Positions 17,773 through 22,734 of a stretch of 64,000 nucleotides of DNA are shown here, one piece after another; position 1 is the stretch's first letter, and each line of letters starts with the position of its first letter. This stretch comes from an uncultured Nitrososphaerota archaeon. GTDB taxonomy: Archaea; Asgardarchaeota; Njordarchaeia; Njordarchaeales; Njordarchaeaceae. A program made the translations under genes and the position numbers. Below the pieces are notes generated by a model. It ran no database searches. It had not been told where the DNA came from and saw nothing but the letters and a program-made list of their open reading frames with translations. Location of the stretch: the NCBI GenBank assembly GCA_964518475.1, contig CAZFGR010000007.1, forward strand, positions 1 to 64,000, read 5' to 3'.

Positions 17773-18657
17773 TCATTTCACAATATCTTTTAGTGTGTTA
17801 AGACTATCGATGAGATCCCCAGAAGTTACCTCTTTTTTCTCTGATAAGCTTTTTGCAATCTCTTCTAAGATAGCAAGAACGAACTCTTCCTTTGCGTTCT
17901 CAAACAATTCAGCCACTAATTGATTCTCAACAACACGTTTACTGGGTCTTGTCGCAATATTAACAACAGCTACCCTGGTGTTCTCTATAAGCATTACTGG
18001 AGAAGTCTTCGACATTATCGCAATATCTGTCACGTATTTCGGGTTCTGCATTAGCGTCTCCACGAACCTGGTGGGTTCTACAAAGTATTTTAGGAACGGC
18101 CCTTTATTCTCATTAAATTCTATGTAAATTATATTTCGGATACCAAAGTTGATCAAAACGTTTCTCAGGTCTTTCTCAATATTTAATAAGCCGGGGTTAT
18201 CGATTACTCTTCTCTTGTTCTCCAAGAAATCTATTATGCTGCGAATTTTTTGAAAGATCTCATTCCTTTCTAAGTTAACCCTATAGACTTTTGCGCCGCC
18301 ACTCAGATAAGTCTCCAAAGCTCCAATACTAACAATCTTATCAAGAATTCTCTCTACCTTATCACTTGGCAATTTTGATTTTCTAGATATTTCGCTGAGA
18401 GAGAATAAGAAAAGTGTTAAAGCGGATTGTAGAACTCCTAAGTACTCATTTAAATTGAATTCGTAAATCTCCCGATACTCATCACTCTGGCTAGCAAGAG
18501 ATTCTTGAATGATTTCTCTCACAAATCTCCTCGTTTTTCTTCGCCGAGATTTAATCAGCGATAAAACATAGTCCAGAGAATACACAATGAGACTACCTAT
18601 CAGGAAACCCATTACAATACTTAATACCAAAGATAAATTTACTTGCAAAGGAATCAT
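17773..18657 (-). CDS. Membrane-anchored winged-helix protein with C-terminal longin/uDENN-like domain
   Basis: N-terminal TM followed by SRRRKTRR; wHTH SLSEISRKSKLPSDKVERILDKIVSIGALE; IIYIEFNENKGPFLKYF motif. ATG 18657 overlaps the upstream stop. Confidence 0.6.
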   Translation of the reverse strand: MIPLQVNLSLVLSIVMGFLIGSLIVYSLDYVLSLIKSRRRKTRRFVREIIQESLASQSDEYREIYEFNLNEYLGVLQSALTLFLFSLSEISRKSKLPSDKVERILDKIVSIGALETYLSGGAKVYRVNLERNEIFQKIRSIIDFLENKRRVIDNPGLLNIEKDLRNVLINFGIRNIIYIEFNENKGPFLKYFVEPTRFVETLMQNPKYVTDIAIMSKTSPVMLIENTRVAVVNIATRPSKRVVENQLVAELFENAKEEFVLAILEEIAKSLSEKKEVTSGDLIDSLNTLKDIVK

Positions 18658-21600
18658 CTCCTTCTTCTCCTTCGCATCAAGAGAGTAAGGGAACTCCCAC
18701 AAACAACTCCTACTAATAAGCCAATATACTGAATCTCGACTATTGATGTTGGAGTTTTTCCTTGAGTTGGTGAAGGTAAGTGTGTGGATCCTTCGCCTTC
18801 TTCACGAATAATGATCTTTATGGAGTTTTCTCCATGATTACCAGCATTATCAATGGCAATAATCCTTAACACATAAGTTCCGGGCTCCGTTAAGTTTATT
18901 GAGAACGTTTTCTCTGTATCATTAAAAGAATAGAGAAGAGTGTTATTCATATAGATAAGGACGCCCCTAATTCCGTTTTTATCAGTAACCTCGTAAGAAA
19001 CATTAATTAGTCCAGGAGGAAAAACAGAATTGTTCAAGGGCTCATCTATTACTATCTTAGGGGGTGTTACATCAATTACTATGGTTTTCTCTTTAACAGC
19101 TTTATTTCCAGCGAGATCTATAGCTTCTACATATAGGAAATAGACTCCTTCTGAGACATTTATCGTAATGGCAAGGTTTGTTTCATTGCCGTTATACAGG
19201 CATGTGTTGTTTAGATAAACAAGTACGTGTTTTATTTCGATCCTATCAGTTATGTTTGCTTGGATGCTGAGAGTTGTTGTGTTTAATAGATCTGGAGCTC
19301 TAAGCTGAATAGTCGGTGGGTGAGTATCAATAATTACTCCTTGGCTATATTCTGCAATGTTACCAGCTATGTCAAATGACAATATACGCACTATATAGTA
19401 GCCGTCCTCGCCTACATCATAGTGCACCGAGATATTAGCAACAGAGCCGTTATAGACTAGAGTATCATTAATATACACGCGAGAGAGTTCTACACCGAGA
19501 TCATCAGTAACATTGGCAGTAATAGTAAGAAGAGTTGAATTCGTTATCTCGGGCACGTTTAGTGTGAGCATTGGGGCGCTAAGGTCAACATATAGGTTTT
19601 TCTCTAATAGTGCCTTTCTACCAGCTGTATCATTAGCTACGATCAGAATTACATGATTCCCAGCAGCTAATTCTTCAATCGTTAAATGAATTGCTTCATG
19701 ACTAGAACCTAGTGAGAAGATGTGAGGATAGCTTTGATCCACAGTGATGATGCAAGAACTCAAACATACGTCGTCACGGAGCTCTATAGTGAGGGTAGGT
19801 GAGGAAGAGTTAGTTACGTATAGCCCTAGGGAATCAACATATTTTAAGCCCCGTAAATCTATGACTGGAGAAGAAGTATCAGGGAGAGCACTTAGACTCG
19901 TTAATCTCATGATTGATGAGTTCTCTAAGAAAAACGAGATAAAGCGAGTTGTGCTAAGCAGAGAAATAGCCCTAATAGCGTTCCCTCCATAAGCTATCTT
20001 CGCTTCCTGAGAAGGAAGAAACATATGAATTGTGGTATTCGTAAACAGTGTGTAAGGTGCTGCGGCTCTGGGTTTTTCTCCGAGTTTTATTTCATTGTAA
20101 GTTGCATTATCTAAATTAATATTAATGAATGAATTATTAACCGGGTACACTAGTATGATAGAGTTGTTATAAGGATGAAGCGAGAAAGTATAAAAATCGC
20201 TAAGAGTGTGCGAGAAAATCGGGAGAATGGTTGACCAATTCTTAATCAGCCACACACTAATATTCCATTTGTAAAGATCGTATAACCTAAATTTTCCCCA
20301 TGCTACTAAGCCGACGTCTAGTGAATTATTATTACGTATAATTATTAGATCATGGAGACCCGTCAGAAATTCCCAATCCAAAAATCTGAGACTTGTAGTG
20401 ATATTATGAGCAATACTAAGATCTGATTTATTAAGCACTAGAAAGCTAAAGACTAGAGATCGATTACTTACTTTTCTGGTAATAGTAAGTATTTTTTCGC
20501 CATAGACTTCTAAGGCTAGTACGTCACCTGTCAACTGTCGTCGTGTCTCATCGGGGAACTTAACTATTGTAGAGTTCTGAAAAGCAACTATTATTTCCCC
20601 TGATGACTGATCCATCGCCACTTCTCTAGAATCTTCCATACTGTGTAATAGAGCGATTTGAGAAGAATTATAATCATGAATAAAAAGGGAGCCATTTGAG
20701 AGGAGATACGAAATTGTATTTAGTGAGAGATCCACTTTTTCCACGAATGCGTCTTCGATGAAGAACTCGTGCACATATCCATGGGAGTTTATAAAGATTA
20801 CATGGTGGCGAGTATAGGCCACTAAAGCATTATAAGTTCGTTCATAGCCTACAAAACCAACATCCAGTATAACCTGAGTTTTCACAGAGAAATCGCTAGC
20901 GAGAATATATAATAGCCCGTATTTACAGGCAATTATGAAGGTCTTATTATCAGAAACGGCTATATCTTGAGGAGGTTCTGAACAAGTAATGTTTTCCTCC
21001 TGGTCTAAGGTTGACACATCATATATAGCTACAGTGTCTCTAGGATTTATGTGAATAGCCGCTATTACATTATTAGCGTACAATATTTTGTATGTCGAAG
21101 CATTTTTCTGTGTAGAGAATAAGTAGGAATTATTCGAATAGATAATGCCAAAACTATCACTAGTTCGAATAAGTATTTCTGAGGAAGAATCGTTGTCGAG
21201 ATCTGGAATGACTTGGGATGATTCGTGGTTCAAGAATAAATTCATTGCTCCTTGATCATTGATTACGAATTGTTTAAGCTTTGTAAATGCTTGATTAACG
21301 AGCCCGAATATGTACTGAAAAGCATTGCTTGTAACCACGCAGATGGAGGGACTGTTGTTCCAAATAATATTGCTGGAAAAAATGATCTTGGAGGGTAATT
21401 CTTGTATAATTATCGTGTCTGATGACCCTGGAATTGTATTTGCTAAGCCATTAGAACTATATCCATCCTCAGTCGTATAGTTGAGGACGAAAATAAGTTG
21501 ATTCTGGAGAGGGAATAGGTTCAGGAGAGTGTAGTTAACCACTATAGACTGGCCATCAGAAAAGGTCACGTTTTTCCAAGACCATTTAACTAGGTTCTCA

Positions 21601-22199: not shown

Positions 22200-22350
22200 A
22201 ATTTAACCTCAAGTAGTTATTCCTGCATAAATGCTAAATTGCTGTGAAGGAATGTGTGAGTATGCGGAGAATAACACTATGCTGACTTAAATATGTTCAT
22301 GATAATATGTAGAGAAGGAGGCAGAAATAAAAACTTTTTCAGAATGAGTC

Positions 22351-22734
22351 TCAGATGATTTCAATTCTGTACTTATTTCTATTAGGAATGTTCTCTAAAA
22401 CGACTCGGATTAAATAATCTGTGGGTAAATCTCCTAGCGAATCAAGTTTCTGAACAATCTTTCTTAATAACCCAAGAGCTGAGGGTAAGAATCGTTCGCG
22501 AGAAACCCGAGCCACTAAGATATAATGATCTCCGAAAAAGCCCACGTAAGGAGTTCTTACAAAGATCTTATCTTTGGCGTAACGCCTCACTAAGTTAGCG
22601 ACAATAGCCATGCCTTCTAAAATATTTTTATCACCCAAGTTTGTATAGATTCGCATTTTGTCCCCGTTAATTGATATAACAAATATCGGTCCACCATAAG
22701 TAAAGACATATAGACGTTGAATAAGCTCTTCCAT
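22351..22734 (-). CDS. Small longin/roadblock-like protein
   Basis: 127 aa with IQRLYVFTYGGPIF beta hairpin, helix, three strands (DHYILVARV) and two helices. Confidence 0.5.
   Translation of the reverse strand: MEELIQRLYVFTYGGPIFVISINGDKMRIYTNLGDKNILEGMAIVANLVRRYAKDKIFVRTPYVGFFGDHYILVARVSRERFLPSALGLLRKIVQKLDSLGDLPTDYLIRVVLENIPNRNKYRIEII

Follow-up and report, generated by a model that had tools for sequence, protein, structure and literature searches.

A surface glycoprotein gene coupled to a gene for a membrane-anchored winged-helix longin protein in an Asgard archaeon of the order Njordarchaeales

Genes and proteins of the locus

We analysed a three-gene locus in a 64,000-nucleotide stretch of DNA from an uncultured archaeon of the Njordarchaeales (positions 1 to 64,000 of contig CAZFGR010000007.1, GenBank assembly GCA_964518475.1); this whole stretch is referred to as the window. 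The source is an Asgard (Promethearchaeota) metagenome-assembled genome of 2.33 Mb with a completeness of 91%, and the public sequencing runs that contain the locus are DNA from sediment and hydrothermal-vent metagenomes, with no RNA run listed. The genes share one orientation on the minus strand and encode, from gene 1 to gene 3, a free-standing longin-fold protein (P0001), a surface glycoprotein (P0002), and a membrane-anchored protein with a winged helix and a C-terminal longin domain (P0003; Table 1). The conserved functional unit is the P0002-P0003 pair, not the trio, and P0001 is a lineage-specific neighbour of the pair. On its motifs and modelled fold, the P0003 longin belongs to the GP-motif class typified by the longins of GTPase-activating proteins (GAPs); that it has GAP activity is our proposal.

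Genes 2 and 3 are joined by an ATGA overlap, in which the ATG of P0003 is shared with the TGA stop of P0002. An alternative TTG start offered by the open reading frame (ORF) lister would give P0003 a length of 309 residues, and all homologues align from the ATG methionine instead. An initial annotation of this DNA, made from the letters alone, had described three co-oriented genes with an ATGA-coupled third, and this arrangement is confirmed. The six arginine codons at the end of gene 2 (cga agg aga aga agg aga) also form a purine-rich, Shine-Dalgarno-like run ahead of the P0003 start codon, and because they serve in both roles, the basic tail of P0002 and the ribosome-binding site of P0003 may constrain each other. 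In the spacer between genes 1 and 2, a T-run follows the stop of gene 1, and there are AT-rich boxes and, 8 nucleotides ahead of the gene-2 ATG, the sequence GAGGT; gene 2 may have its own promoter.

Table 1. Features of the locus, with positions in the window
Feature	Position	Strand	Description
Gene 1 / P0001	22351..22734	-	127 aa, free-standing longin-fold protein
Gene 1-gene 2 spacer	22200..22350	-	151 bp; read from sequence
Gene 2 / P0002	18654..22199	-	1181-aa type-I surface glycoprotein
P0002 signal-peptide-like N-terminus	22119..22199	-	Residues 1-27; hydrophobic core after MKRN
P0002 FG-GAP-like repeat region	21150..21812	-	About residues 130-350; three D-x-[DN]-N-D-x3-E loops
P0002 Ig-like stalk repeats	18795..19622	-	About residues 860-1135; Big_7, Big_13
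P0002 C-terminal transmembrane helix	18675..18743	-	Glycine zipper GLLVGVVCG
P0002 six-arginine cytoplasmic tail	18657..18674	-	From translation
Gene 3 / P0003	17773..18657	-	294 aa from ATG; transmembrane helix, winged helix, linker helix, GP-type longin
P0003 transmembrane helix	18568..18636	-	Residues 8-30; then KSRRRKTRR on the cytoplasmic side
P0003 winged helix	18265..18459	-	Residues 67-131; elements a1-b1-a2-a3-b2-b3
P0003 longin domain	17776..18147	-	Residues 171-294; b1 b2 a1 b3 b4 b5 a2 a3
P0003 GP motif G186-P187	18097..18102	-	Start of longin strand 2
P0003 R241, candidate arginine finger	17935..17937	-	b4-b5 loop

The AlphaFold2 (AF2) model of P0003, with a mean predicted local distance difference test (pLDDT) score of 87.9, consists of a transmembrane helix that starts at residue 8 and runs into a basic juxtamembrane helix, a winged helix, a linker helix, and a C-terminal domain with the element order of a longin. 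The membrane orientation of both P0003 and P0002 was assigned by the positive-inside rule, by which P0003 is predicted to be a single-pass N-out/C-in protein with about seven residues outside the cell. Its transmembrane segment contains GFLIG, and across the family this helix keeps a [GST]-x3-G motif with a tyrosine or histidine five residues on. The C-terminal domain, which contains IIYIEFNENKGPFLKYF, was modelled with a pLDDT of 94-98, and assignment of secondary structure by DSSP gave strands at 173-182 and 186-192, a split helix at 197-215, strands at 221-224, 227-236, and 243-251, and helices at 257-271 and 279-293, the strand and helix order of a longin. In Foldseek, this part of the model matched the uDENN domain of DENND10 (6e-4; root mean square deviation [rmsd] 4.3 Å over 125 columns). 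Shape searches with VIA wide and the ESM Atlas took the whole P0003 model as query, and their results were dominated by the winged helix or by two-domain regulators. A free-standing homologue of P0003 with a model in the ESM Atlas (P0013; 31% identity, E 4e-9) has as its nearest shapes C9orf72 (TM-score 0.68), Asgard Arf/Ras-longin fusions (0.60), NPR2 (0.59), and Avl9 (0.56); one Atlas neighbour cluster carries an NPR2 annotation on 19% of its members, which we take as a lead only.

Conserved residues of this domain point to a particular class of longins. G186 is invariant in all 28 family sequences of alignment A2, and P187 is invariant in the seven full-length proteins and at least 90% conserved in the longin-domain alignment A4. 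An arginine occupies the column of R241 in 21 of the 28 family members. By the 2-1-5-4-3 topology of the sheet, the b4-b5 loop that carries R241 neighbours the b1-b2 loop, which makes R241 a candidate counterpart of FLCN R164 or NPRL2 R78. The GP motif and R241 are 55 residues apart, a spacing we take to be similar to that of NPRL2 (G20 to R78). A GP motif beside an arginine finger has been described as specific to the GAP longins of FLCN, NPRL2, SMCR8, and C9orf72 and to one class of Asgard longins (PMC12290439, Traffic 2025). The F-x3-GP hairpin to which the initial annotation had drawn attention is this published motif. The GP motif of P0003, with R241 as a candidate for the arginine finger, and the modelled fold place the P0003 longin in that class. 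The likeness lies in fold and motifs: at E<=5, no match to the Pfam models NPR2, Folliculin, Longin, and uDENN turned up in P0003 or across the 28 family sequences, and PF06218 and PF13774 had zero matches in the source genome. Searches of Protein Data Bank (PDB) sequences with the profiles A2, A3, and A5 returned nothing significant. Neither Pfam nor NCBIfam assigned a family to P0001 or P0003.

The middle domain of P0003 is a winged helix in its model, as had been proposed: VIA matches had Z scores of 10-11 and rmsd values of 1.2-2.3 Å over 57-66 residues. The matched structures include the Fur, ArsR, MarR, IclR, and ROK regulators, as well as Z-alpha and ESCRT-II winged helices. Winged helices can also act as protein-contact modules, and we consider a protein-contact or dimerisation module the more likely role for this one than reading DNA, for reasons set out below.

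In P0002, about 830 ectodomain residues with FG-GAP-like repeats are joined by an Ig-like stalk and a single C-terminal transmembrane segment, IVEIQYIGLLVGVVCGSSLTLLM, after which comes the six-arginine tail, with no conserved tail motif. The protein contains 47 N-x-S/T sequons where 16 are expected by composition, a density of 4.0 per 100 residues; across the genome the median is 0.30 and the 95th percentile 1.37. Ig-like models exceed their Pfam thresholds over three stretches each (Big_7, 1.2e-16 and 61.5 bits with a cut-off of 24.1; Big_13, 1.2e-12 and 48.6 bits with a cut-off of 27), and do so in all P0002 orthologues as well. The D-x-[DN]-N-D-x3-E loops, at residues 133, 177, and 333, are accompanied by borderline scores for FG-GAP_3 (15.7-17.9 bits in P0002 and 26.6 in its closest orthologue, against a cut-off of 26.9). 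This model appears at E<=1 in four of the six family members, at best with 3.8e-6, and the ten best named feature-based neighbours of the region are all FG-GAP propellers (scores 0.82-0.86), again a lead only; a PDB profile search with the region gave no match. The earlier description of an FG-GAP/Ig surface glycoprotein stands for the glycoprotein, the Ig repeats, and the transmembrane helix, and its FG-GAP part remains at or below the Pfam threshold.

A C-terminal transmembrane helix with a short basic tail is generic in this genome, where 41 other ORFs have one. The packing motifs in the helix, to which the initial annotation had pointed, are unusual: each of the six anchors in the P0002 family has a small-x3-small-x3-small zipper, compared with 3 of the 41 other C-terminal anchors of the same genome, and GxxxG is present in four of the six and 1 of the 41. 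The six anchors are kin, though their transmembrane sequences differ, and Fisher p-values for these motifs are overstated because of that kinship. We also considered and set aside the idea that the C-terminus of P0002 is an archaeosortase-type sorting signal; the 41 like-anchored proteins have no common motif ahead of the transmembrane helix, and archaeosortase genes were not searched for.

Conservation of the pair and its longin family

The P0003 family is small. An exhaustive search found 18 proteins in 1.84 billion representatives, and word-indexed homologue searches recovered almost nothing past close kin. The pair recurs in at least five further genomes or contigs, where a relative of P0002, collinear with it for about 1000 residues, has a P0003 homologue encoded just behind it, at 23-39% identity: L001/L002, G004, G005, and G006 (loci L017, L018, and L019), and the metagenome contig L087. 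The junctions between the two genes run from a 16-nucleotide overlap to a 2-nucleotide gap, with ATGA again in L001/L002, except in L087, where the gap is 7 nucleotides. Paralogues of P0002 in the source genome that share the Ig repeats alone have no P0003-type partner.

The position of P0001 is far more variable. Its gene lies upstream of the pair and in the same orientation in the window, in L001/L002, and in G002. In L087 it is divergent from the pair across a 134-bp spacer (E 4e-42), P0001 alone being inverted between XPB and P0002, and in G005 and G006, both of this genus, the pair locus lacks it. Homologues of P0001 from other genera lie elsewhere in their genomes. We looked for a P0001 homologue beside the pair in G004, where the two contig ends do not overlap. 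Compared with the closest relative, L001, a block of six genes (a 97-aa gene, a ribbon-helix-helix gene, an XPB-like helicase gene, and those for P0001, P0002, and P0003) is inverted in the window (17773-24881, versus 7817-14950 in L001) between the same flanks, a Pyr_redox gene and a methyltransferase gene; the counterpart of the block in L087 is at 1492-8408, and the flanks differ in G005. Because the whole region is syntenic, including XPB and XPD, the adjacency of P0001 could be inherited. The three-gene module of the initial annotation thus reduces to a pair, found at five or more further places, with a third gene that is absent from the locus in G005 and G006 and turned around in others.

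P0001 is nevertheless a longin, as proposed. Its AF2 model (pLDDT 93.3) matched CPLANE Fuzzy in VIA with a Z score of 9.7 and an rmsd of 3.2 Å over 111 of 127 residues; further matches were the VAMP7 longin (Z 8.7), Mon1-Ccz1 (8.4), and GATOR1 (8.3), with TRAPP and AP sigma subunits within 8.1-8.7. Nearly all of its top 50 Foldseek matches were longin or roadblock proteins, with a best E value of only 7e-3, and an Atlas shape neighbour (TM-score 0.62) is an Asgard cluster with Fuz_longin_1 on 35% of its members. Residues G15 and P16 of P0001 start strand 2, the same structural place as the GP of P0003, and the conserved loop arginine is absent. A profile-profile comparison of the P0001 and P0003 families detected no homology (probability 1.9%). 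P0001 could be the second longin of a heterodimer with P0003; a complex prediction for P0001 and residues 60-294 of P0003, made with their own alignments, scored 0.00 against a mark of 0.32, which weighs neither way. Elsewhere, genes of the P0001 family often adjoin a gene with a metallo-beta-lactamase fold (L038 6377-7873, L045 4924-6620, and L040 6563-8395), which in L045 has a HAHADH motif. A similar metallo-beta-lactamase-like gene follows an Ig-repeat surface protein on contig C9 of the source genome (7031-8104).

Beyond the pair, we searched 251 genomes of the phylum, from 63 genera, with the longin profile and found matches in 60 genomes and 20 genera; the longin-carrying genomes of this order have one to six copies each. 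Several of these longins adjoin genes for small GTPases. Free-standing longins in L036, L037, and L061 have a Ras-family GTPase gene directly upstream (Pfam 1e-34 to 9e-44), and on contig C12 of the source genome (21867-25833; L046/L081) a gene for a 222-aa Ras-family GTPase (Ras 9e-44) is followed by one for a 311-aa transmembrane-anchored paralogue of the P0003 longin. In genus g2 (L020 2084-4605 in G013 and L021 5832-8334 in G007), an Arf/Gtr1-RagA-like GTPase gene (284-290 aa; Arf 1e-13 to 6.5e-17, Gtr1_RagA 8.8e-7) lies directly upstream of a gene for a multi-pass longin protein of about 540 aa, in which several transmembrane helices precede a winged-helix and GP-longin unit and the sequence ends in RRRR. 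Because the source genome has about 12 Ras/Arf-type GTPases in 2.3 Mb, such adjacencies are unlikely to arise by chance. The GTPase link suggested by the initial annotation is thus supported by the neighbourhoods of paralogues and not for the gene it had named: the GTPase at 58977-59450 in the window, about 36 kb away and one of the roughly 12 in the genome, has no particular link to the pair and was rejected as its specific partner.

In other families, the longin is part of a surface protein. Three genomes of two other Asgard families (G044, G051, and G066) encode signal-peptide-bearing surface proteins of 1054-1658 aa in which a longin sits 45-60 residues behind a single transmembrane helix, with profile E values of about 1e-7 (L083 2809-7011 in G044; L084 6803-11779 and L082 2816-7411 in G051; L085 6245-9409 in G066). 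Comparison of the fused and P0003-type longins by hhalign gave a probability of 94.5% and an E value of 7.7e-8 over a span that includes the GP motif and the arginine loop. The ectodomains of these proteins are unrelated (Big_3_5/MG2, Laminin_G_3, or none recognised), and the fused forms have no winged helix and no room for one. That longins of this kind function at the cytoplasmic end of surface proteins thus has a separate line of evidence in the fusions.

A number of related genes were noted in passing. Contig C12 also encodes a convergent 726-aa protein of no Pfam family whose N-terminus looks roadblock/longin-like by eye, and in L020 genes for a 396-aa TrmB-type coiled-coil protein and another P-loop protein lie just upstream; the locus of the P0002-P0003 pair has no TrmB coiled-coil gene. 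A further subgroup of transmembrane-anchored longins, of 228-261 aa, is found in L035 (12018-13342, in G001), L072, L068, L073, and L079 (genus g2); at several of its loci a small transmembrane protein of about 170 aa comes next, and in G010 there is an Ig-repeat surface protein nearby. On contig C1 of the source genome (182160-183002), a 280-aa ORF has an Arf GTPase domain in its second half (Pfam Arf 1.3e-16) preceded by about 110 N-terminal residues with a longin/roadblock-like look by eye, and it may be an Asgard longin-GTPase fusion of known type. Contig C5 (19234-20059) has a small Ras/Arf-type GTPase gene beside a Roadblock/LC7 gene, an MglA/MglB-like pair separate from the longin system.

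A proposed link from the cell surface to a small GTPase

We propose that P0002, as the surface protein, and P0003, as a GAP-type longin tethered to the membrane, form a module for docking or regulating a small GTPase, a reading that we favour tentatively and would give slightly less than an even chance. P0002 would be an N-glycosylated surface protein whose ligand state or position is a possible input. Since P0002 has six residues inside the cell and P0003 about seven outside, any contact between the two must be helix to helix in the membrane; the zipper motifs of the P0002 helix, together with the conserved [GST]-x3-G and the tyrosine or histidine of P0003, would fit such a pairing. At the inner membrane face, the P0003 longin may hold or regulate a small GTPase of the Ras, Arf, or Rag type, and its likeliest role there would be that of a GAP or a docking platform. 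This could tie a GTPase switch to the surface protein, through its position or its ligand state. A more elaborate version, which we consider rather unlikely as a whole, is an outside-in or inside-out switch in which an integrin-like, glycosylated FG-GAP/Ig receptor packs through its glycine zipper on a GAP longin that uses R241 to turn off an Arf-, Rag-, or Ras-like GTPase; the split and fused forms would then go back to a single receptor-longin device, ancestral to both and with kinship to FLCN, GATOR1, and C9orf72.

Several observations weigh against the proposal that the pair serves a small GTPase. No GTPase gene adjoins this pair, the nearest lying about 36 kb away; the GTPase-adjacent longins amount to about three orthologous groups, and elsewhere in the longin family a GTPase neighbour is often lacking. 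With the whole P0003 model as query, the best matches in Foldseek are IclR transcription factors (8e-6). The pair is confined to one genus and its close metagenomic kin, where inherited synteny is expected, and conservation around the locus extends to the XPB and XPD helicase genes, which are unrelated to the pair. Finally, the genes can be found apart: P0014, a homologue of P0003, has no surface-protein gene beside it, and in G001 the gene divergent from P0001 encodes a P0002 homologue with no P0003 homologue next to it.

The confinement to one genus, the helicase neighbours, and the separability seen in P0014 and G001 are what would be expected if the pair and the trio were neighbours by descent with no functional or physical connection. 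We regard this as very improbable, because overlaps or gaps of no more than 7 nucleotides persist between the two genes at 23-39% identity despite rearranged surroundings (the inversion relative to L001 and the changed flanks in G005), and because surface proteins and longins have been joined independently in the fusions of other families; the unusual transmembrane motifs also speak against it. A connection that needs no GTPase is harder to set aside. SNARE and adaptor-complex longins act without regulating a GTPase, and P0003 might likewise be a scaffold that holds, positions, clusters, or sorts P0002 through cytoskeletal, ESCRT, or other partners. The tight translational coupling suggests stoichiometric co-production, the fused forms place a longin physically in surface proteins, there is no GTPase gene at the pair locus, and longin roles unrelated to GTPases are known (PMC10933270). 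On the other hand, the GP motif and conserved arginine mark the GAP class and not the SNARE or adaptor longins, and several paralogue groups lie directly downstream of GTPase genes, so that a GTPase-independent scaffold seems to us unlikely.

The initial annotation had favoured a ToxR-like transcription factor, and P0003 could in principle be a membrane-tethered one-component regulator whose winged helix binds DNA while its longin senses or dimerises, with P0002 providing input through the transmembrane helices and P0001 modulating the response. The winged-helix fold itself is closest to DNA-binding regulators, and the IclR matches share with P0003 the order of winged helix, linker helix, and alpha/beta domain. 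The Atlas shape neighbours of the whole model are labelled 'transcriptional regulator', and Pfam gave weak matches to TrmB (E 0.12, sub-threshold) and HTH_65. However, the IclR superpositions are loose, taking both domains in order at an rmsd of 13-20 Å and a TM-score of about 0.2, and no regulator family model (HTH_IclR, IclR_C, or Trans_reg_C) matched P0003 even at E<=5. Among 11 family members, the recognition helix has a net charge of -2 to +2 with no conserved basic residue and no conserved polar pattern, and the whole winged helix ranges from -4 to +3 across the family; the corresponding recognition stretch in genus g2 reads SDAVVALFGSG. The fused surface-protein forms keep the longin and omit the winged helix, the longin family is linked to GTPase genes, and the VIA list that contains the regulators also contains a protein-contact winged helix, that of ESCRT-II. 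The likeness to ToxR and CadC extends to a winged helix tethered by one transmembrane helix. Those proteins have an N-terminal OmpR-type winged helix-turn-helix, then the transmembrane helix and a periplasmic sensor, whereas in P0003 the transmembrane helix comes first, the winged helix is not of OmpR type, and there is no extracytoplasmic domain. The ToxR-like architecture is therefore abandoned; the winged-helix fold stands, and its role as a DNA reader is weak because the recognition helix is not conserved as a basic surface. We consider a transcription factor quite unlikely, and prefer the small-GTPase module proposed above.

Relation to known systems and significance

P0003 most resembles the eukaryotic GAP longins (FLCN-FNIP, NPRL2 of GATOR1, and SMCR8/C9orf72) and the GP-motif longins of Asgard archaea, with which it shares the longin order, the GP at strand 2, and a conserved arginine in the neighbouring loop. 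The structural neighbours of P0013 include C9orf72, NPR2, and Avl9, and members of the P0003 family are linked in their genomes to Arf-, Rag-, or Ras-like GTPases. P0003 also departs from these proteins in several respects. No DENN or other C-terminal domain follows its longin, which is preceded by a transmembrane anchor and a winged helix, unlike NPRL2 and NPRL3, in which the longin comes first; and its gene is coupled to that of a surface glycoprotein, a setting unlike that of Rag/Ragulator-type scaffolds. No Pfam model for the GAP longins detects it. With the IclR family, P0003 has its domain order in common without an IclR-type sequence signature. P0002, for its part, is reminiscent of integrin alpha and other FG-GAP/Ig proteins in its Asp-rich FG-GAP-like loops, Ig stalk, small-residue transmembrane motif, and short basic tail. 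Unlike an integrin, it has no beta-subunit, its proposed membrane partner is a longin protein, and its FG-GAP repeats score only at or below the Pfam threshold.

Multidomain longin proteins of Asgard archaea have been published (PMC12290439, PMC10933270, PMC11188069), and according to a published view, Asgard GTPases are hard to match with their regulators because the genes are seldom arranged in operons (PMC10933270). In full-text literature searches, we found no account of a protein that combines a transmembrane helix with a winged helix and a longin, nor of such a protein coupled to a surface protein of the FG-GAP/Ig kind.

In eukaryotes, the longin-domain GAP complexes of folliculin, GATOR1, and C9orf72-SMCR8 control nutrient and membrane signalling. 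To our knowledge, prokaryotic forerunners of these complexes have so far been recognised only in Asgard genomes, as 'GP-motif longins' with no assigned place. The locus described here and its relatives place a GP-longin at the membrane with a defined surface-protein partner, as a coupled gene or as a fusion, and the paralogues give GP-longins defined GTPase neighbours. Although the variant in which a transmembrane, winged-helix, and longin protein is paired with a surface glycoprotein reaches no further than one genus, these loci offer concrete protein sets for the biochemistry of possible links from the cell surface to GTPases in the archaea most closely related to eukaryotes. If the receptor-longin switch is true, Asgard archaea would already have coupled cell-surface receptors to small-GTPase cycles.

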